Below, piece by piece: positions 8,653-17,084 of a DNA stretch of 64,000 bases; the first letter of the stretch is position 1; each line of letters begins with the position of its first letter. Made by a program: the position numbers and the translations under genes. The notes below the pieces were generated by a model that was given only the letters and a program-made list of their open reading frames with translations, ran no database searches and was not told where the DNA came from. Origin of the DNA: an uncultured Gammaproteobacteria bacterium (GTDB lineage Bacteria > Patescibacteriota > Microgenomatia > UBA8517); NCBI GenBank assembly GCA_964600575.1, contig CAZRJH010000001.1:28651-92650 (forward strand), read 5' to 3'.

Positions 8653-9489
8653 ATGGCAGAAGAAGTTATACAGCTAGAAATTAATCAAGTTCAACCCAAC
8701 CCCCTTCAACCTCGTGGTGCAATTACTCCTGAAAGTTTGGTAGATTTGGTAGATTCTATAAGAGAACATGGCATTCTAGAACCTCTCGTGGTTGCCAAGA
8801 CCCCCGCAGGATTCCAACTTATAGCAGGAGAAAGAAGATGGAGAGCCTCAAAACTCGCAGGTTTGACTCATGTCCCTGCAATTATAAGAGAAACTTCACC
8901 CAAGGGAATGCTCGAAATGGCCTTGGTAGAAAATGTACAAAGAGTAGATCTTAACCCACTGGATCGCGCTAAAGGTTTTGAGCGCTTAATGAACGAATTC
9001 GGCTTAACCACAAGCGAAATCGCGGTAAGAATCGGTAAATCTGTTGCGTACGTAAGCAATTCCTTAAGACTTTTGTCACTTCCGGATGCACTTAAAGACG
9101 GACTGCTTTCGGGTTTGATTAGCGAAGGCCACGCAAGAGCGCTTGCCGCAATCGACGATAGCAATTTAATGATCGAGGCTTACAAGATTATTCTTAGAGA
9201 AAGTGGCTCAGTAAGACGCGCAGAAGAACTTGCCAGAAGAATGAAAGTTAAGTCTCAACAGGTTACAAAAGCCCCCACAGAACATATGAGAGTGGTTTCG
9301 GAAGAAATTGACAAAATGCAGGCGGAGTTAGAGCACGCATTTGTTAACGGCAACCCCGACGAGGCCAAAAAATCTACGGTTAAACTTATAAGATCCAGAA
9401 GAGAAACAAGAATTCTTTTTATATTTAAGGGTGGCTTAGACGAAACAGAGGACAAACTTCAGAGGATTTACAAAGCAGTAACAGAATAA
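8653..9489 (+). CDS. parB: ParB/Spo0J-like partition protein (no parA adjacent)
   Basis: ParB box 'QLIAGERRWRASKLAGLTHVPAI' and an HTH region 'TTSEIAVRIGKSVAYVSNSLRLL'. Confidence 0.8.
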   Translation: MAEEVIQLEINQVQPNPLQPRGAITPESLVDLVDSIREHGILEPLVVAKTPAGFQLIAGERRWRASKLAGLTHVPAIIRETSPKGMLEMALVENVQRVDLNPLDRAKGFERLMNEFGLTTSEIAVRIGKSVAYVSNSLRLLSLPDALKDGLLSGLISEGHARALAAIDDSNLMIEAYKIILRESGSVRRAEELARRMKVKSQQVTKAPTEHMRVVSEEIDKMQAELEHAFVNGNPDEAKKSTVKLIRSRRETRILFIFKGGLDETEDKLQRIYKAVTE

Positions 9490-9547
9490 TTAAGACTCGT
9501 CCCCCTTTTTGCATCGTTTGAGAAATTTATGTGTGATTTTCTGTGAC

Positions 9548-10105
9548 TTAAAGGGAATAGTTTGGAAGTTTTACAAAAGAAGCATTTTTTACAGGCCAAT
9601 AAACCAACCAGGCTTTACCACTCATACTCTTTTTGGTTATAGCACCAAAAGCACGAGAATCGGATGAGTGAGGTCTGTTATCTCCCATTACAAAATATTT
9701 ATCATCGGGTACTAGGTACTCGGTGCCTTCCGGGAGGAAAAACCCGTCGTTGGTATACAAATCGCTGGCAAGGTATGGCTCTTCTAAAATTTTATCGTCG
9801 ATATACACTCGGCCATCTTTAACCATAACCCGCTCTCCTGGCATGCCTATTACTCTTTTGATATATTCGTCTGTTTCCGAGGTGGGTGGAGTAAATACAA
9901 TTACATCGCCTCTTATTGGATCTCTTCTGTAATATGTTACCTTTTCTGTTAAAAGGTATTCTGCGTCGGGAAAATTTGGTTGCATGGACTGCCCCTTAAT
10001 CTTGTGAGGTCGCATGATTAGAAGGTATACAAAGAAAAATATACCCACTGCAAAAACGACTACCTCCAAAATATCCAAGAAAAAAGCGCCAAGTTTACCA
10101 AACAT
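9548..10105 (-). CDS. lepB: signal peptidase I
   Basis: N-terminal TM, box B 'GQSMQPNF', box D/E 'YIKRVIGMPGERV' and 'VMGDNRPHSSDSRAFG'. Confidence 0.85.
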   Translation of the reverse strand: MFGKLGAFFLDILEVVVFAVGIFFFVYLLIMRPHKIKGQSMQPNFPDAEYLLTEKVTYYRRDPIRGDVIVFTPPTSETDEYIKRVIGMPGERVMVKDGRVYIDDKILEEPYLASDLYTNDGFFLPEGTEYLVPDDKYFVMGDNRPHSSDSRAFGAITKKSMSGKAWLVYWPVKNASFVKLPNYSL

Positions 10106-10176
10106 AATTCATTATGTTTATTTTTTATTTAAATTACAAGTGCTTGGCACCACCCTTCGTGTTAAAATACGCATAA

Positions 10177-10251
10177 GGACGACTAGCTCGGTGGTAAGCT
10201 GAGCTTGCCACTGAATTGTGGTAAGCTGCTTCGCATCTTGCCACCTAGTTT
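10177..10251 (+). other. tRNA-Val 5'-half-derived fragment embedded in short imperfect direct repeats (not a functional tRNA)
   Basis: 'GGACGACTAGCTCgGTGGTA' (10177-10196) matches the first ~20 nt of the tRNA-Val 88 nt downstream with one mismatch. It is followed by duplicated 'GTGGTAAGCTG' (x2) and 'CTTGCCAC' (x2). There is no T arm and no complementary acceptor 3' strand. Confidence 0.5.
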
Positions 10252-10264
10252 TTTGTCCAATCCA

Positions 10265-10336
10265 GGACGACTAGCTCAGTGGTAGAGCGTTCGATTCACA
10301 TTCGAAAGGTCGTTGGTCCGATCCCAACGTCGTCCA
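10265..10336 (+). tRNA. tRNA-Val (anticodon CAC)
   Basis: Manual cloverleaf: acceptor GGACGAC/GTCGTCC, D arm GCTC-AGTGGTA-GAGC, anticodon stem TTCGA/TCGAA with loop TTCACAT (anticodon CAC), T arm GTTGG-TCCGATC-CCAAC, discriminator A. CCA is not encoded. Confidence 0.8.
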
Positions 10337-10342
10337 CATTTA

Positions 10343-10371
10343 TTGTCAACAATAAAATCTGAGGTTATACT
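10343..10371 (+). promoter_or_regulatory. sigma70-like promoter upstream of the alpha-2-macroglobulin gene (TTGTCA - 17 nt - TATACT)
   Basis: 'tatTTGTCAacaataaaatctgaggtTATACTgaatttgtcGTG' ends about 9 nt before the GTG start at 10381, implying a near-leaderless transcript or a downstream real start such as the Met at 10435. Confidence 0.4.
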
Positions 10372-10380
10372 GAATTTGTC

Positions 10381-13300
10381 GTGTTTTTCCAAAAACTTTT
10401 TTTCAAGGTATTAAGTTTCCGCAATCTGGCCATAATGGCCGTATTTCTTTTCCTTATTACAGGCGGATATTTTCTGTTAGGAAAAAAAGCCCCTAAAACC
10501 GACGCGGGATATCAATCTCCGCAAATATTTATTTACGGAGGTGATAATAGTTTTTCGGCAGGCGGTTTAATTTCTTTAGCTTCAACAGACGAGCCCGCCG
10601 TTCAGATTGGTGGCTATAACATTTCGGGTAATGCAACGGTGGAAGTCTATAAGGCCAACCCGGATATGCTTTTGGACTACCTAACACACGATAAAGACGG
10701 TAAGCAGACAAAAACAAAGCCCGATGTTTCAAAACTCGAATTTGTAGGCACCACATCTCATTCAATAAATACCAACTCATACGAAGGTTCAAAAGTTAGC
10801 CTTCCTTTGGCTGAGAGCGGAGTCTGGTATCTAAAAGTTAAAATCGGCAATGTAAACGCCGACGCCTTTGTTCTACGAAGCGGATATGGGATTTTGGCTA
10901 AAGAAGGGGATAACGAATTTATTTTTTGGGGCCAGGACTTTAAAACTAAGAGGAGTATAAATGCCGGAAGTTTAAGCGTCCTAAATATGCAGGATACAAA
11001 AAAGAGTCTTTCCCAGACTAATTTTGATTCCGAAGGATTGGCAAAAGCTCCGATTACCGAAGAAGCTGATATAGCTTTTGCCCAAATTAACGACCAAATT
11101 GCAATAGTGCCTCTAAATCTCAAGTATCTAAACACGCCCTCGTATAAGTCTTATCTACAAAAAGCTCAAAATACAAATTATTTTGTGTTTACAGATAGAC
11201 CTTTGTATAAACCGGGCGACAAAGTTTATTTTAAAGCAATACTTCGAAACGACGACGATGCCAGGTATACAATCCCTTCGGGTAGTGCAAAAGTAAAGAT
11301 TTCTAGCGGATACGGCCCAGAAGAAATTAAATATGAAAAAACCTATCCTATTTCTTCCGAGGGCACGGTAGTTGGTGAGTATCAATTATCTGCCGATGCA
11401 AAAGTGGGTGGATACAGTCTGGAGATAAGCACAGGCGGGTCTAACGAAAATATTAGCTGGTCGGAGTCTCATTGGTGGAACGGATCGGTTTACTTTGATG
11501 TTGAATATTTCCAGAAACCGCAATATTTTATAGAAGTAACTTCTCCCAAAACCGAGTTGATTGCAGGGGATAAATCTACTTTTAAAATTCAGGCGAGTTA
11601 TTTTTCCGGGCAGCCTTTGGCAGGACAAAAAGTAAAATATAGAGTAGCTGCAGGCGATTATTACGATTATCAATATTACTCAGATATTAATTATCTAAGA
11701 TCTAGTCTCTCAAACGACTACAAATATTCTTATTATGGTTCCCATACTGTTTTGGAGGGTGTAACCGAACTTGATAAAAACGGTCAAAAAGAAATTACGT
11801 TCGATACAAAGATGGATTTCAATAATGGAAGAAGCCAGGTTTTTGCCATAGAGGCAACACTTGACGATAACTCCCAGACTCCCTCTTTCTCCAGACAAAA
11901 TGTTTTGGTTTATGCAGGCCAATACGGAATTTACAGATCGGACTATTCTTATGGCGGCAAAGTAAATACCGATCTCTCCATTCCTTTGCAACTTTACGCG
12001 TACGAGCCTGATGCAAATATCGCTGGTGTCCAACTAACAGCAAAAGTACACTGGGAAACATGGGAAAGTTATAACGATCCTAATCAAAAGTATCCCCAGT
12101 ACAAAAAAGTAGAACAAGACCTGTCGGAAATAAAAGGTACAACGGACTCAAAGGGTAATGTAAAGTTAAACTTTAAACCCCAAAAAGTAGGTTTTTACAC
12201 ATTTAAGATTCAAGGTACAGACGAAAAGGGTAATACTATTGGTAATACATTTTATGCATATGTCAGCGACCAAGATCAACCTGCATATACACCCCAAGGT
12301 GGAAATGAGTTAACAGTTAGTACCGATCGTGAACAATATAGTCCTGGCGATACAGTAAAACTTTCCATCTACTCCAAAACTTCGGACAGAGATGTGTTTT
12401 TAGCGATGGAGAGAGGGAGAGTTAATAGGTTTCAGATTGTTCATCTAAACGGAAACAAAGGCAGTATAGATCTGCCAATTTTAGACACGGATATTCCTAA
12501 TATGTACGCCAAAGTTTCCGCATTTTCTTCGAATGCACTCGACGGTAGCTCTGTAAATCTAAAAGTATCCACTCTAAGTAAGCGTGTTGTTGTGGGGCTT
12601 AAATTTGATAGTAAAAAATACGCTCCGGGAGATACGGTTAACGTTCAAGTTACAACAAAGGATGGATTTGGAAATCCTGTTTCTTCCGATGTTGCTCTTT
12701 GGGCCGTGGATAAGGCCATTTTTGAACTATCAGACTCAAAGTTGGGTAATATATTTAATACTTTTTGGAATGAAAGAGGTGACACCACCCAAGAGGATCA
12801 TTCATTAGAAGGAATTGTGGCATATAGCGCAGAAGGCGGCGGATGCTTCCTGTCCGGCACAAAGATTTTGATGTCAGACGGCAAAGAAAAGAATATCGAA
12901 GACGTAAAAGTCGGTGACTACGTATTAACCTATACCTCTGATTCCTCTAAGAAATTGGTCAAAGCTAAAGTTTTAGCAACTCAAAAGGCGGTTGACCCGG
13001 GTTATTTGATCATTAACGGTAATCTAAAAGTAACTCCCGATCATATAATTATGGCCAATGGAGTTTGGAGAGAAGCAGGAAGCGTGCAATTTGGCGACGA
13101 GTTGTTGTCTTCAAACGGCGATAAAGTAAAAGTTTATTCAATTGAATGGCAAAGGGGCAAAGTAGATGTTTACAATTTAACTGTAGACAAGTATCACACA
13201 TATTTTGCCAACGGACTTTATGTGCACAATCAAAAAGGGGATTCCAGAAGCACATTTAAAGACACTGCATATTGGAATCCCAGCGTTAAAACAAACTCGT

Positions 13301-15510
13301 CGGGTTTGGCAACTGTTTCGTTTAAACTCCCGGACAATCTTACAACTTGGACCGTAGCGGCCGTTGCAGATACGGCAGATACCAAAGTCGGTCAAACCAC
13401 CGAAGAAATTATTGTAACCAAAGATGTTATTGTAAGACCTATTCTTCCAAACATAATAAGGTTGGGGGACACATTAGTTGTTTCTGCTTTGGTCCAAAAC
13501 TCAACCGACTCCGACAAAAACTTCGATGTAGATCTTAAGTTTGATTCAGGAGACGTCACTACAACTTCGTTCAAAAACGTTAAAATAGCAACTAACTCAA
13601 TAGAAAGGTTTGCTTGGGAAATAAAGCCGCAAAAAGAAAACCCTAACGCAAAATTGGAAGTTACCGCACAAGTATCCGATAACGAAAAAATATCAGACGG
13701 TGTAATTTCAGAAATTCCCGTTATTCCTTTCGGATATTTTGTCACGACTTCGGAAGCCGGTGACGGCAACAAGGATTACAACATTGCTATTCCACAGAAT
13801 GTTTCTAAAGAAAAGTCAAAGTTAACACTTTCTCTTTCCCCAACAGTTTTGGGAACACTACCGACAGCGATGAAATATTTGGTTAACTATCCTTACGGTT
13901 GTACGGAACAAATCACAAGCCGATTTGTTCCGGCACTTATAGCCAAGGCAAACCCGACACTTTTTGCCGATGCGCTTAAAGACAAAGATATCGACGAGAT
14001 AATCCAAAAAGGTATAGCAAGATTAGTTGCCACTCAAAATGGGGACGGCGGTTGGACATGGTGGTTTACAGGGACATCCGATCCTTATATTAGCTCCTAT
14101 GTTGCGGAATATTTAGTTTATGCCCAAAAGCTAGGTTATAAAGTAGATAAAAATTCGTTGGACAGAGCCAGGGGTTATTTGGGATCTAAGTCCTATTACG
14201 ACTACAAACAGCAAAAAGAAATTGCATATACTGATGACGAAAAAGCAATTAAAAATTACGGCCTTGTTATTTTAGGAAACACAAAAGACATACACACTGT
14301 AAATGTTGAAAGTCTTTCTTTGGACACGCTTGCTTTAAATGTAATAACCAACTCTTCACTTGGTAATAAAAATCCCGCATCAAACGGTTTAAACAGACTA
14401 ACTTCTATGGCGCAAACCCAGGGGGACAGTGTTTACTGGGAAGCAGGTAGCAAACTTCACTTTGGATCAAAAGACGCTTCTACGGCATTTGCAATAAGAG
14501 CAATAATTGCTTCTAACGGGGATCGGGAATTGGCTGTAAAAGCCTCTAAATATTTAATCAGAAACAGAAAGTTTGAATATTGGTCCAACACTTTTGCAAC
14601 AGCACAAGTTGTAAGGGCGGTGACTGATCTATCCAAAACAGGCGGTGAATCTAACCCAAACTTCTTATACTCTGTAACACTTGATGACAAAGAGCTTGCA
14701 AATGGCCAAGTCCAAAATATAAAAGATAAGTTGCAAGATATAGATATTGATACCTCTAAAATTAACTCTAAAGGATCTAATCTAAAAGTTACCATCGAAG
14801 GCCAAGGTCAGTTATATTCCGCCTTTGTCTCTAAACTTTTCTACACCGATACAAAAGCAGACGCTGTTAAAAATGGACTTTCTATAAAACGGGAATATAT
14901 TAACGAAAAAGGAGATCAGTATCAGTTGGCGGTTGGTGATAGCGTTATCGTTAAGATAACTGCGACAGGGCCCAAAGCACCCGAAAATTATGCCGTAATC
15001 ACCGACGAACTACCTTCGGGAATGGTTCCGGTTAACCCCATGTTCAAAAACGAGCAATATGGCGAAAACCCGCTTCCGGCTTATTTTTCAAACTCTTATG
15101 TGACGGGAATGGATGTTACACAAAATGGTGCTGTCTTGTCTTTGTATCTATTGGAACCGGGAACACACACTTTTACATATAGAGCCCGAGTAGTTAGTGC
15201 CGGTAAGTTTACGGTACCCCCTGCAGAAATAAGTTTGATGTATGATCCCGCAGTAAACGCCAGAACAGAGGTGCAAACATTAACCATAGCAGAAGAATCA
15301 AAACTTATCCCGACGGCATTTATTCAGGTTATATTTAAGAAATATTTCTGGAACATAATACTTGGAGTGTTTGGTGTATCCGCACTCATTGCGATTATTG
15401 TAAAAATGAAGGGTTCGGGGTTTAAGTTGTCAGAGCTTAAATCAAAACTTTTAAAAATTTTCAAGAAAAATAAAGATATTACGCCACCGATCACTCCTGA
15501 CGTACAATGA
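10381..15510 (+). CDS. membrane-anchored alpha-2-macroglobulin family thioester protein (1709 aa) with an embedded Hint/mini-intein domain in the bait region
   Basis: Repeated MG-domain starts 'FTDRPLYKPGDKVYFKAIL', 'VSTDREQYSPGDTVKLSIYS', 'KFDSKKYAPGDTVNVQV'. A2M_N_2 hallmark 'DVALWAVDKAIFELSD'. Post-bait 'RSTFKDTAYWNPS...LPDNLTTWTVAAVA'. Thioester motif 'NYPYGCTEQITSRFVPAL' (Cys at nt 13900-13902), then 'LVATQNGDGGWTWW'. Hydrophobic N-terminal (res ~17-35) and C-terminal ('FWNIILGVFGVSALIAIIV') anchors. Confidence 0.85.
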   Translation: MFFQKLFFKVLSFRNLAIMAVFLFLITGGYFLLGKKAPKTDAGYQSPQIFIYGGDNSFSAGGLISLASTDEPAVQIGGYNISGNATVEVYKANPDMLLDYLTHDKDGKQTKTKPDVSKLEFVGTTSHSINTNSYEGSKVSLPLAESGVWYLKVKIGNVNADAFVLRSGYGILAKEGDNEFIFWGQDFKTKRSINAGSLSVLNMQDTKKSLSQTNFDSEGLAKAPITEEADIAFAQINDQIAIVPLNLKYLNTPSYKSYLQKAQNTNYFVFTDRPLYKPGDKVYFKAILRNDDDARYTIPSGSAKVKISSGYGPEEIKYEKTYPISSEGTVVGEYQLSADAKVGGYSLEISTGGSNENISWSESHWWNGSVYFDVEYFQKPQYFIEVTSPKTELIAGDKSTFKIQASYFSGQPLAGQKVKYRVAAGDYYDYQYYSDINYLRSSLSNDYKYSYYGSHTVLEGVTELDKNGQKEITFDTKMDFNNGRSQVFAIEATLDDNSQTPSFSRQNVLVYAGQYGIYRSDYSYGGKVNTDLSIPLQLYAYEPDANIAGVQLTAKVHWETWESYNDPNQKYPQYKKVEQDLSEIKGTTDSKGNVKLNFKPQKVGFYTFKIQGTDEKGNTIGNTFYAYVSDQDQPAYTPQGGNELTVSTDREQYSPGDTVKLSIYSKTSDRDVFLAMERGRVNRFQIVHLNGNKGSIDLPILDTDIPNMYAKVSAFSSNALDGSSVNLKVSTLSKRVVVGLKFDSKKYAPGDTVNVQVTTKDGFGNPVSSDVALWAVDKAIFELSDSKLGNIFNTFWNERGDTTQEDHSLEGIVAYSAEGGGCFLSGTKILMSDGKEKNIEDVKVGDYVLTYTSDSSKKLVKAKVLATQKAVDPGYLIINGNLKVTPDHIIMANGVWREAGSVQFGDELLSSNGDKVKVYSIEWQRGKVDVYNLTVDKYHTYFANGLYVHNQKGDSRSTFKDTAYWNPSVKTNSSGLATVSFKLPDNLTTWTVAAVADTADTKVGQTTEEIIVTKDVIVRPILPNIIRLGDTLVVSALVQNSTDSDKNFDVDLKFDSGDVTTTSFKNVKIATNSIERFAWEIKPQKENPNAKLEVTAQVSDNEKISDGVISEIPVIPFGYFVTTSEAGDGNKDYNIAIPQNVSKEKSKLTLSLSPTVLGTLPTAMKYLVNYPYGCTEQITSRFVPALIAKANPTLFADALKDKDIDEIIQKGIARLVATQNGDGGWTWWFTGTSDPYISSYVAEYLVYAQKLGYKVDKNSLDRARGYLGSKSYYDYKQQKEIAYTDDEKAIKNYGLVILGNTKDIHTVNVESLSLDTLALNVITNSSLGNKNPASNGLNRLTSMAQTQGDSVYWEAGSKLHFGSKDASTAFAIRAIIASNGDRELAVKASKYLIRNRKFEYWSNTFATAQVVRAVTDLSKTGGESNPNFLYSVTLDDKELANGQVQNIKDKLQDIDIDTSKINSKGSNLKVTIEGQGQLYSAFVSKLFYTDTKADAVKNGLSIKREYINEKGDQYQLAVGDSVIVKITATGPKAPENYAVITDELPSGMVPVNPMFKNEQYGENPLPAYFSNSYVTGMDVTQNGAVLSLYLLEPGTHTFTYRARVVSAGKFTVPPAEISLMYDPAVNARTEVQTLTIAEESKLIPTAFIQVIFKKYFWNIILGVFGVSALIAIIVKMKGSGFKLSELKSKLLKIFKKNKDITPPITPDVQ
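12844..13230 (+). other. Hint (intein-type) domain, 129 aa (res 822-950), no homing-endonuclease insert
   Basis: Block A 'CFLSGTKILMSDGKEKNIEDVKVGDYVLT', block B 'TPDHIIMANGVWREAGSVQFGDELL', blocks F/G 'VDVYNLTVDKYHTYFANGLYVHN'. The first residue is Cys; the last two are His-Asn; the following residue is Gln. Confidence 0.8.
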
Positions 15511-16379
15511 AAAAAGTCATCATTAAGATCGTTTTCTTAACGATAGTTTTTAGTGTACCTTTTCTTATGGTACATAAAAATGTACTGGAAATTCCCAAAG
15601 GCGAGTATAACAAAGTTCTACACTTTGATAAGGAAAGTTTTATTTTAGGAATTTCGGAAGCAGAAAAAGACGGTGGGGAATTGGAATACAAAGTAAGAGG
15701 TGGAGTGGTGCCGCATCATCTTTTGGCTAGTTCGATAATCGCTGATTTTTTTAAGAAACTATCACAAAATCCCCCCGAAACAATAATACTTTTAGGACCC
15801 AATCATTTAGAAACTGGAGATTTTAAGGCGCTAACTAATTCCAAGTCTTGGATGACGGAATACGGGGTAGTTAGGCCCGACCCAGAAATACTAAGCATTT
15901 TGCTTAAGAAAAATTTAGTAAAAATAGACGATAAAGCTGTAGAGGAAGATCAATCTATTTCGTCACCTATGACTTTTGTAGCTTTTTACCTTCCTTCAAC
16001 AAAAGTTGTGCCGATAATTCTAAGTGCAGATATGAAAGAAGAAGATATTTCAAAACTTTCGGAAGAGATTTCAAAAATAATTAAAAGCAAAAACGCAATT
16101 CTGGTTTCTTCTATCGACTTTTCGCACTATCTCAGTTTTGATCAGGCAGAGGCGCGTGACTTGGAATCTATCACCGCAATTAAAAATTTTGGTTGTAGTA
16201 AGATAATCAAATTCGATAGCGATAATATGGACTCCGCACCGGCAATGTGTACGCTTTTGTATACGATGCTTTCTTTAGGATCTACCAATATCGATATACA
16301 AACACACGAAAATTCTTACAACATTCAAAAGTCGGGTAGTGACTCCACTACTAGTTATTTTTCTATTTTTTTCCACTAA
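15507..16379 (+). CDS. MEMO1-family (AmmeMemoRadiSam system protein B-like) protein with N-terminal membrane anchor
   Basis: 'GGVVPHHLLASSI' (PHAG-like), 'ILLGPNH' (LGPSH motif), 'EEDQSISSPMTFV' (EHS..E-like), 'VSSIDFSHY'. 4-nt overlap with the A2M gene (ATGA). Confidence 0.65.
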   Translation: MKKVIIKIVFLTIVFSVPFLMVHKNVLEIPKGEYNKVLHFDKESFILGISEAEKDGGELEYKVRGGVVPHHLLASSIIADFFKKLSQNPPETIILLGPNHLETGDFKALTNSKSWMTEYGVVRPDPEILSILLKKNLVKIDDKAVEEDQSISSPMTFVAFYLPSTKVVPIILSADMKEEDISKLSEEISKIIKSKNAILVSSIDFSHYLSFDQAEARDLESITAIKNFGCSKIIKFDSDNMDSAPAMCTLLYTMLSLGSTNIDIQTHENSYNIQKSGSDSTTSYFSIFFH

Positions 16380-16406
16380 AATAAAAACAGAAGAATTCGA
16401 TAAATT

Positions 16407-17084
16407 ATGTCGGCAAGAAACTTGAAATATATATTGTTAACTATCTGGACGGCATCCATTTTGCTGGGACTATATACAATCTTTAAAAATACCCCCTTTT
16501 CCACACTCAAAACACCTCTTTCTGTTACCGGGTTGCTTCAAAGAATTTTTGGAATAACGGCATTTGTTTGTTTGTTTTACCAAATTATTTTGGGTAGTTA
16601 CATGCAGGTTTTGTCGGAAAGGGTCGGCGGATTTATTTATAAGTTTCATATTCTGCAAGGTGTGTTTGTTTATGTCCTGATTTTGTTTCACCCCGTTTTC
16701 TTTTTGATTTTTAATTACTTTGCAGGGAGAGGGGTTGATCCTTACTATGTTTTTACTCAAGTTTGTGTTTTATGCCAAAATAAGGGAGAACTATATTACT
16801 CTTTGGGTAAGGCCTCTTTCTGGATTTTAAATATTACCGTTTTTTCGGGACTTTTTAGAACAATGAATCACTTTATGAGGGTCAACTGGAAAAAGTTTCA
16901 CAATCTAAATTATTTGGTTTTTGGTCTTATTTCTATTCACGGATATTATGTGGGAAGCGATTTTGGTACTCAACCATTTTTTGGTATGGCGATGGTTTTT
17001 GTATTAATTTATCTTTATGTTTTATTGTTTAGGAAGGCCCCGGAGATGTATTTGGAGTTAAAAAACTGGTTTAGATCAAATTGA
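16407..17084 (+). CDS. ferric-reductase-like transmembrane bis-heme protein (MsrQ/YedZ/NOX-TM-like)
   Basis: Polytopic protein. 'FHILQGVFVYVLILFH' gives H-x13-H; 'FHNLNYLVFGLISIH' gives H-x12-H. These are the paired bis-histidine heme ligation spacings of ferric reductase/NOX/MsrQ TM domains. Confidence 0.55.
   Translation: MSARNLKYILLTIWTASILLGLYTIFKNTPFSTLKTPLSVTGLLQRIFGITAFVCLFYQIILGSYMQVLSERVGGFIYKFHILQGVFVYVLILFHPVFFLIFNYFAGRGVDPYYVFTQVCVLCQNKGELYYSLGKASFWILNITVFSGLFRTMNHFMRVNWKKFHNLNYLVFGLISIHGYYVGSDFGTQPFFGMAMVFVLIYLYVLLFRKAPEMYLELKNWFRSN

Follow-up and report, generated by a model that had tools for sequence, protein, structure and literature searches.

Does a macroglobulin exist that carries the means to cut its own bait loop? 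The question is raised by a 64,000-nucleotide stretch of contig CAZRJH010000001.1 (assembly GCA_964600575.1, positions 28,651 to 92,650; hereafter the window, whose numbering is used for all coordinates), in which the plus strand at 10381..15510 encodes a thioester-containing alpha-2-macroglobulin (A2M) of 1709 amino acids (aa) with a GTG start, identified from the list of open reading frames (ORFs), from Pfam and from sequence matches to the bacterial A2Ms ECAM and SaA2M. In A2M and complement proteins, activation follows one principle: once a single loop is cut, a stored conformational change is set free together with a reactive thioester. To our knowledge, every described member of the group is cut by another protease. 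An earlier note on this DNA had placed an intein-type Hint domain in this very loop. Our analysis locates there a type-A bacterial intein-like (BIL)/PT-HINT domain of 129 aa (residues 822-950, 12844..13230, plus strand), assigned by Pfam, NCBIfam, a profile comparison with the BIL structure 2lwy and an AlphaFold2 model. With modest confidence, and on the strength of sequence comparison, we favour the reading that this Hint is an autoprocessing module that would cut the bait loop from within and so give a two-chain or self-triggered A2M.

Searches with profile hidden Markov models (HMMs) detected the Hint and gave the domain order MG2, A2M_BRD, PT-HINT, A2M, TED and bMG10, all encoded on the plus strand, as are the other features given below with window coordinates. 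The protein belongs to the A2M/thioester-containing protein family, given that its MG series (MG2 at residues 267-355), its bait-region domain A2M_BRD (residues 644-783, 12310..12729, supported also by C5 and ECAM alignments and closing with DVALWAVDKAIFEL) and its C-terminal MG domain bMG10 (residues 1499-1623, 14875..15249, E 5.8e-23) all score above the Pfam cut-offs and that a CxEQ motif lies in the helical thioester domain (TED; residues 1160-1269, 32.2 bits against a cut-off of 22). This motif, G-C1174-T-E-Q (residues 1173-1177, 13897..13911), has its G, C, E and Q invariant in 121 of 121 aligned family members, and C1174 aligns with ECAM C1187. Three profiles recognise the Hint itself: PT-HINT (PF07591) at residues 837-950 (E 4.9e-13, 49.9 bits against a cut-off of 27.7), Hom_end_hint at residues 822-850 (41.8 bits against 32.1) and the NCBIfam model intein_Cterm at residues 929-950 (27.5 bits against 15.6). 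Behind it, the Pfam A2M domain (residues 962-1052, 13264..13536) contains LPDNLTTW and aligns with the C5 alpha' chain and with human A2M from residue 732 onward. The ORF and codon positions agree with the earlier note on an A2M of 1709 aa with a 129-aa Hint at 822-950, and the motifs and spacings that it had quoted are all present, R956 lying 6 aa and the thioester Cys1174 224 aa past N950. There are exactly two cysteines in the 1709 residues, C822 (the Hint Cys1, itself predicted to form a thioester) and C1174 of the thioester; the same two-cysteine pattern is found in 91 of 121 family members, which suggests, from the sequences, selection against further thiols on this surface A2M. The public annotation of the identical protein (P0001) starts at Met19 and has 1691 aa, a shift of 18 in residue numbering that puts the Hint at 804-932.

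The position of the insertion was determined from three alignments. In a MAFFT alignment of E. coli YfhM/ECAM (MG1655) that included Hint-bearing and Hint-less relatives, DVALWAVDKAIFEL aligns with ECAM 893-906, residues 800-819 of the query with ECAM R923-G951 and Q951-K952-G953 with ECAM K955-R956-G957, the insertion falling between ECAM G951 and K955. In ECAM cleaved by elastase, the bait is cut and disordered over R923-L942, and the residues of the cleaved bait region by which the C-terminal MG domain is bound are R956, G958 and N963 (PMC4498604). The insertion site lies just after this disordered bait and just before these three residues, and ECAM has a Gly-rich ...GGDG...KRGG at the equivalent site. 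When the Hint was deleted from the sequence, DVALWAVDKAIFEL aligned with C5 599-612 and SRSTFKDTAYW with C5 from 765 onward, two blocks that bracket the C5 linker, the RPRR processing site and C5a; R956 aligned with residue 732 of human A2M, whose bait region we take to be 690-728. The alignments with ECAM, human A2M and C5 agree on the bait-region position claimed earlier, none of them placing the insert outside it, and by this comparison the Hint sits at the bait or anaphylatoxin-linker site. The AlphaFold2 model, covering residues 500-1699 (77-sequence alignment, mean predicted local distance difference test [pLDDT] 82), shows the Hint as a confident separate domain (block-mean pLDDT about 81-94) between two linkers that are both predicted to be disordered (pLDDT below 50), at residues 800-821 (model 301-322) and 954-960 (model 455-461). 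The first of these is the pre-Hint bait linker (12778..12843), which ends with Gly-Gly at positions -2 and -1. The model matched native ECAM (5a42) and SaA2M (4u48) with a Foldseek E of about 1e-44 and template-modelling scores of 0.44-0.45, as against 0.25-0.29 for the protease-activated forms; as modelled, the overall arrangement of the A2M is native-like.

Is the inserted domain equipped to act? The family alignment consisted of the query and its 120 best database homologues (n = 121, 45-100% identity). Residues G821, C822, F823, T885, H888, H949, N950 and K952 are invariant in all 121 sequences, R956 and D961 are likewise invariant, and G820 is found in 120 and G953 in 119 of them. Cys822 (12844..12846), the predicted nucleophile of an N-S acyl shift, is thus always followed by Phe823; T885 and H888 are the outer residues of block B (T885-P-D-H888, 13033..13044); and His949-Asn950 (13225..13230), within the intein_Cterm match, is the predicted site of Asn cyclisation and hence of C-terminal cleavage. 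The position after His-Asn, +1, opens the tail QKGDSRSTFKD (13231..13263), which aligns with ECAM from K955. Here the family has Gln (82), Asp (20) or Glu (19) and never Cys, Ser or Thr, and two further loci have N or G; among 45 strictly motif-defined A2M representatives with tallied flanks, 41 have QKG, DKG or EKG after His-Asn. The GCxEQ thioester is invariant alongside the Hint catalytic residues (121/121), around which the other Hint positions vary freely. An inactive relic was rejected on account of the invariant catalytic residues. That the Hint might be an inert structural insert, a folded spacer or protease-accessible bait devoid of chemistry, would suit a compact, confidently folded domain between disordered linkers; we consider it highly improbable in view of the invariance, in 121 sequences, of all residues needed for acyl shift and Asn cyclisation against a background of variable Hint positions.

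The Hint evolves at the rate of its host, mean pairwise identity among the 121 sequences being 58% for the Hint and 54% for the whole protein. The description of the bait loop as the least conserved part of the protein did not hold, since residues 784-821 have a mean pairwise identity of 61%. The compactness of the Hint was borne out: Pfam and the total length of 129 aa leave no endonuclease insert, and the family HMM found no further Hint copies in the 64-kb window, matching the A2M ORF alone.

To which class of Hint does the domain belong? The N-terminal Cys, the block B TxxH and the C-terminal His-Asn of class-1 inteins are all present, and blocks A, B, F and G can be recognised, as they can in class-1 mini-inteins such as Mtu RecA (2in0). 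To this extent the earlier description as intein-type with all splicing blocks stands; it fails at the +1 nucleophile, which is absent from 121 of 121 sequences. Since +1 is never Cys, Ser or Thr, there can be no transesterification and canonical splicing is impossible, and a canonical intein was ruled out by this missing nucleophile. The location differs as well: class-1 inteins occupy a conserved functional site of the host, typically a catalytic site of an information-processing protein and often with an endonuclease, whereas this Hint lies in a variable-length, Gly-rich loop of a surface protein. Among solved structures the nearest by sequence is the BIL 2lwy (Clostridium thermocellum BIL4), at E 1.2e-9 when the sequence is used singly and at 1.5e-18 with the family profile. 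In the ranking by family profile the PT-HINT-type structures 8w20 and 6tmm/6y75 follow 2lwy and precede the true inteins; true mini-inteins score E 6e-10 or weaker, the similarity to class-1 mini-inteins such as Mtu RecA lying at about 1e-9 to 1e-10.

Type-A BIL domains are the subject, reportedly, of Amitai et al. 2003 and Dassa et al. 2004. The domain studied here shares with them the Hint fold, Cys1, TxxH, His-Asn with no nucleophile at +1 and a place in a surface-protein loop. By definition type-A BILs end with His-Asn and have no +1 nucleophile (PMC4031507, PMC7765530); BIL domains reside in those parts of secreted bacterial proteins that are variable, and they autocleave (PMC7765530, PMC4031507). 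Type-A BILs give mainly cleavage products, ligation being possible only through attack of the freed amine on the N-terminal thioester, i.e., aminolysis (PMC4031507). In contrast to these, the present domain occurs as a single copy at one fixed site of a large, conserved multidomain host, is inherited across a deep divergence, and sits at the A2M bait, where a cut has a defined mechanistic meaning. The best Pfam family, PF07591, which is matched above its gathering score, is shared with the PT-HINT domains of polymorphic toxins (6tmm/6y75, 8w20). Those are C-terminal autocleavage modules, whereas no toxin domain follows here and the A2M continues through MG, CUB, TED and MG10. A Hedgehog-type Hint was rejected, as PF01079 reached 21.2 bits, under its cut-off of 29.7, and no sterol-recognition region follows His-Asn. 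By these sequence criteria the domain is a type-A BIL/PT-HINT domain and not a canonical intein; the kind of module and its behaviour are already known, and what is new is the host protein and the site of insertion.

What would such a domain do in a bait loop? In the favoured reading, Cys822 would attack the Gly821 carbonyl to form a Gly~S-Cys thioester, Asn950 would cyclise and thereby break the Asn950|Gln951 bond, and, with Gln, Asp or Glu at +1, no transesterification would follow. Autoproteolysis is the dominant predicted outcome because a +1 nucleophile for transesterification is lacking. The predicted products are an N-chain of 91.2 kDa, the Hint of 14.4 kDa and a C-chain of 83.4 kDa, of which a fraction might be re-ligated by attack of the freed amine on the thioester. 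The cut would fall where C3, C4 and C5 are processed and where ECAM is cut by proteases. In C3, C4 and C5, too, a whole domain is inserted at this site and the chain is cut there during maturation, and the cut chains stay assembled because an MG domain is built from both; their insert is an anaphylatoxin and the cuts are made by furin and convertase at basic sites, whereas the insert here is a Hint and there is no RxxR site. In the clade of about 1700-aa proteins to which the query belongs (clade A), the two halves would be held together by the split MG domain and by two membrane anchors. In ECAM, once the bait is cut, a segment of it binds to the C-terminal MG domain and the TED is displaced (PMC4498604); the freed tail QKGDSR... 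would be the counterpart of ECAM K955-N963, the docking segment that releases the thioester domain. By analogy with these systems, the bait-loop cut may either mature the protein, as in C3, or fire it, as in ECAM, and the Hint would then work as a switch that matures or primes a cell-surface trap independently of proteases.

A bolder form of this proposal, which we think unlikely, makes the Hint a built-in trigger by which the A2M fires without an attacking protease. Cyclisation of Asn950 would free the QKGDSR... tail, the TED would be released and the Cys1174-Gln1177 thioester exposed as a covalent 'harpoon' or self-arming shield, with the Gly821 thioester as a possible second warhead towards Lys952 or an external amine. 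On the cell of an epibiotic CPR bacterium, a doubly anchored thioester protein that fires by itself would be something other than a passive trap for proteases. If true, this would be a previously unknown activation mode for a protein of the complement/A2M type.

The thioester at Gly821~Cys822 might also be resolved, in place of water or the +1 alpha-amine, by a specific amine or hydroxyl in a Hedgehog-like transfer, whether onto a target protein, onto a cell-wall or lipid acceptor, or onto the side chain of the invariant Lys952 to give an isopeptide-linked two-chain product. The bait loop would in that case hold a second warhead in addition to the TED thioester. The Hog domain shares the G|CF junction, which we take to be the Hedgehog cleavage-junction motif and which is invariant in this family, and in both domains the thioester could react with some nucleophile that is not the side chain at +1; a Gly at -1 leaves the thioester unhindered, the BIL subfamily as a whole keeps a Lys at +1 or +2 with a Gly behind it, and the protein is exposed at the surface of bacteria thought to be host-attached. 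The proposal is, on the other hand, inferential throughout: unlike Hog, the domain ends with His-Asn, no sterol- or adduct-recognition region follows it, PF01079 stays below threshold as given above, and no acceptor can be identified from the sequence. We regard a transfer of this kind as quite improbable.

More weight has to be given to the alternative that the Hint is a self-removing passenger with no function for its host, a reading that we hold possible but rather doubtful. The BIL would excise itself and re-ligate its flanks, C-terminal cleavage being followed by attack of the Gln951 alpha-amine on the Gly821 thioester, so that a single-chain A2M with a short Gly-rich bait would result (predicted spliced chain 174.6 kDa, junction peptide GDTTQEDHSLEGIVAYSAEGGGQK, i.e., ...AEGGG-QKGDSR). 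The catalytic residues would then be kept only because failed splicing would ruin the A2M. Type-A BILs can indeed splice without a +1 nucleophile, and against this stands that the published ones give mainly cleavage products (both PMC4031507). After splicing, the loop is predicted to look much like the Gly-rich loops of Hint-less relatives and like the GGDG...KRGG of ECAM; then again, no +1 Cys, Ser or Thr has been regained in at least 121 sequences, and there is no homing endonuclease that could provide for upkeep or spread.

The relatives of the Hint bear on the same point. A HMMER search with the Hint alone against 1.84 billion representative proteins returned 12,579 matches at E ≤ 1e-3 and 162 at E ≤ 1e-30, and the best 150 relatives (50%-identity representatives) were tallied in detail. 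Among these 150, 78 are A2M-like proteins with a single Hint; the other 72 are not A2M-like, and almost all of them carry tandem sets of 2 to 8 or more Hints. The nearest relatives of the Hint outside the A2Ms are thus tandem BIL arrays in proteins of the surface type. Ten non-A2M proteins that were scanned combine their Hints with PKD, Laminin-G, Y_Y_Y or pilin N-methyl domains, and one array protein (P0121) showed 13 matched stretches in phmmer. The junctions in the non-A2M arrays read GGG|CF...HN|K-G-(G), with minimal linkers of the form HN-K-G-(G)-CF; Lys at +1 or +2 followed by Gly was seen as a signature of the entire BIL subfamily, non-A2M arrays included. Flanks that are generic to the subfamily suit a passenger. 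The Hint keeps a constant place among the A2M-like representatives: measured where the motifs are recognisable, its end lies 11-16 aa ahead of D[TIM]A[YF]W (42 of 43 scored) and 219-238 aa ahead of GCxEQ (54 scored). The relatives go under database names such as 'Alpha-2-macroglobulin domain protein' or 'Intein C-terminal splicing domain-containing protein', and family members have been in public databases since the first genomes of the Candidate Phyla Radiation (CPR).

How old is the association between the Hint and its host? All 120 best homologues carry PF07591 with A2M domains at the same site, those that are named coming from Gottesman-, Davies-, Woese- and Woykebacteria. The earlier note had recognised a recently invaded intein at varied positions as an outcome that would contradict it; one site in 120 of 120 best homologues and invariant catalytic residues point the other way. 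Recent invasion was also rejected on composition and flanks: the GC content and composition of the Hint equal those of the rest of the A2M gene, and a search for signs of recent insertion found no meaningful direct or inverted repeats flanking it. The identities of Hint and host are correlated (r = 0.73). For the window paired with L001, the nearest relative in the genome scan, dN (nonsynonymous divergence) is 0.26 for the Hint and 0.22 for the whole gene, and with pS (the proportion of synonymous differences) at 0.67-0.84 the dN/dS ratio is uninformative because synonymous sites are saturated. Judged by these comparisons, the Hint is inherited as a fixed part of the A2M of Patescibacteria (Microgenomates/WWE3 group).

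In a genome scan with one genome per GTDB species (80 loci), the family HMM found the Hint in loci L001-L010 and L012-L019 and found none in L011, L020, L029 (a contig-end fragment) or the remaining 60 loci, which are mostly from Acidobacteriota, Chloroflexota, Peribacteria and Armatimonadota. Hint-bearing orthologs are widespread in Patescibacteria, the title of most of their records naming that group, and Hint-less ones such as L011 are also found. The titles of L001, L004, L010, L014 and L017-L019 read 'uncultured Gammaproteobacteria', 'Nevskiaceae' or 'Bathyarchaeia archaeon'; non-Patescibacteria titles of Hint-bearing records of metagenome-assembled genomes (MAGs) probably stand for mislabelled or mis-binned assemblies. 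At the insertion site the Hint-bearing loci read ...GGG|C...HN|QKG..., and in the Hint-less relatives the place is taken by a short Gly-rich loop whose length and sequence differ from one to the next, as in GGGGAGGGEPSR or KGGDGGGARR. Because the Hint-less loops vary in this way, an imprecise deletion of the Hint should be tolerated.

A host tree was built by neighbour-joining (NJ) after removal of the Hint columns (1478 columns, 100 bootstraps). Clade A is Hint-positive, and the Hint-less L011 is nested within it in 100 of 100 replicates, so that L011 represents a secondary loss, the only nested one among the clade-A genome-scan loci. Its loop reads MGGPEMGG-GGGS-TRD, and its MAG holds a second, near-identical N-terminal fragment at a contig end (L029), either a duplicate or an assembly artefact. 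Clade B (L014, L016, L017 and L019; 2093-2285 aa), a second A2M clade of Patescibacteria with longer proteins, is Hint-positive at the same site, with the Hint at about 1263-1584, and in 99 of 100 NJ replicates it groups not with clade A but with Hint-less A2Ms of the Chloroflexota type. Between clades A and B the Hint is 44% and the host 23% identical. This two-clade occurrence would be explained either by one old insertion followed by several losses or by a move of the Hint from one A2M paralogue to another at the same Gly-rich site. For a passenger, both the survival of a nested lineage without the Hint and the sharing of one site by two non-sister clades, with the Hint more similar than the host, are congenial, the latter being compatible with intein-like lateral spread. 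Against a passenger, loss should be easy in an indel-tolerant loop, yet retention in clade A is near-universal. As a separate observation made by eye on C-terminal sequences and the family consensus, the MG10 domain of clade A (about 1560-1625) is altered in the motifs that in ECAM hold the TED and bind the cleaved bait, with DRExTENG-like sequence in place of RDDR and SLMY in place of ExMY; clade B and the Hint-less relatives keep RDDR and Y-x-MY, and the Met-Tyr is invariant in the clade-A alignment.

On balance we favour a functional role for the Hint over a passenger, because the loop is indel-tolerant, an endonuclease is lacking and clade A has retained the Hint almost without exception. 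Several points weigh against autoprocessing of the bait loop and are given here together. Conservation of the catalytic residues is equally expected for a neutral self-removing element. Since type-A BILs can re-ligate their flanks, the mature A2M could be an ordinary single chain, and if the activation site is cut constitutively, the thioester might be fired early, unless chain cleavage by itself does not activate, as in C3. The GG|CF...HN|xKG flanks, being shared with the tandem arrays, belong to the BIL subfamily and are not an adaptation to the A2M; the Hint-less L011 is a natural case, read from its sequence, of an A2M existing without a Hint; and the same-site Hint in two clades of the host tree looks intein-like. 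Finally, the residue-level alignment with ECAM within the bait loop is approximate.

Is such an arrangement known? Full-text literature searches found, among the matches listed, no publication linking A2M to inteins, BILs or Hint domains and nothing relevant on macroglobulins of CPR bacteria, which agrees with the earlier note, to whose author no description of an A2M with an embedded Hint was known. To the extent that this could be checked, the combination, its fixed position at the activation loop and its breadth are undescribed. The result is a large protein family of the ultra-small CPR bacteria with a predicted self-cutting domain at the activation loop, comprising at least 78 of the best 150 representatives and spanning two A2M clades. 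If the Hint cuts, this would be the first case in which a thioester protein becomes two-chain or activated by autocatalysis, as well as a natural parallel to the furin-processed C3, C4 and C5, and few BILs would be clearer candidates for having a defined function in their host. The domain would in that event also provide a way into the surface biology of uncultured Patescibacteria that live attached to hosts and, as a compact, nucleophile-free Hint with Gly-rich flanks, be of use in protein engineering. The finding is surprising for the A2M and complement field and less so for the intein field, where BILs in surface-protein loops are expected.

How is the protein held at the cell surface, and in what genetic context? 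The earlier note had described the A2M as membrane-anchored, and a hydropathy scan supports this with an N-terminal hydrophobic signal-anchor at about residues 16-34 (10426..10482), a transmembrane-like segment being present in 112 of 121 family members; with only two cysteines in the protein, there is no lipobox Cys at the N-terminus. The scan adds to that claim a C-terminal transmembrane helix at about residues 1656-1674 (15346..15402), found in 121 of 121 clade-A members and in neither clade B nor the Hint-less relatives examined, both of which end right after MG10. The C-terminus of the Hint-less L011 is merely weakly hydrophobic. With transmembrane helices at both ends, both halves of the A2M would remain tethered to the membrane after a cut in the bait loop. 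As far as we know, ECAM and SaA2M, the bacterial A2Ms that have been described, lack such a double membrane anchoring. These two (5a42, 4u48, 4rtd), the best matches in sequence and in fold, share with the present protein the MG domains, the bait-region domain, the CxEQ TED, the C-terminal MG domain and a membrane tether; ECAM, however, is a periplasmic lipoprotein paired with pbpC and has a plain disordered bait cut by foreign proteases, whereas this A2M has no lipobox, transmembrane helices at both ends, a Memo-like neighbour and a Hint in the bait.

The Memo-like gene (PF01875, E 7e-28) at 15507..16379 overlaps the A2M stop codon (ATGA) and encodes a protein with a hydrophobic segment at its N-terminus. 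By tblastn, a Memo-like gene lies directly downstream of the A2M in 11 related loci, the Hint-less L011 included, which suggests a conserved A2M-Memo gene pair in this clade that replaces the yfhM-pbpC pair of E. coli. On the other side of the A2M, a tRNA-Val (CAC) at 10265-10337 (plus strand) has its 3' end 44 nt upstream of the GTG start, and an Rfam scan near the A2M gene found no RNA feature other than this tRNA; the antisense ORFs listed within the gene are short. Located 3' of the Memo-like gene, at 16407-17084 (plus strand), is a gene for a 225-aa multi-pass membrane protein that is conserved in L001 and has a weak match to a ferric-reductase-like transmembrane domain (24.6 bits, under the cut-off of 28). 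When window positions 8653-17084 were compared with L001, ParB was 97% and signal peptidase 84% identical, and the A2M was 70%, the ferric-reductase-like membrane protein 59% and Memo 54% identical; since the housekeeping ParB and signal peptidase are far more similar between the two, the surface-protein block evolves much faster.

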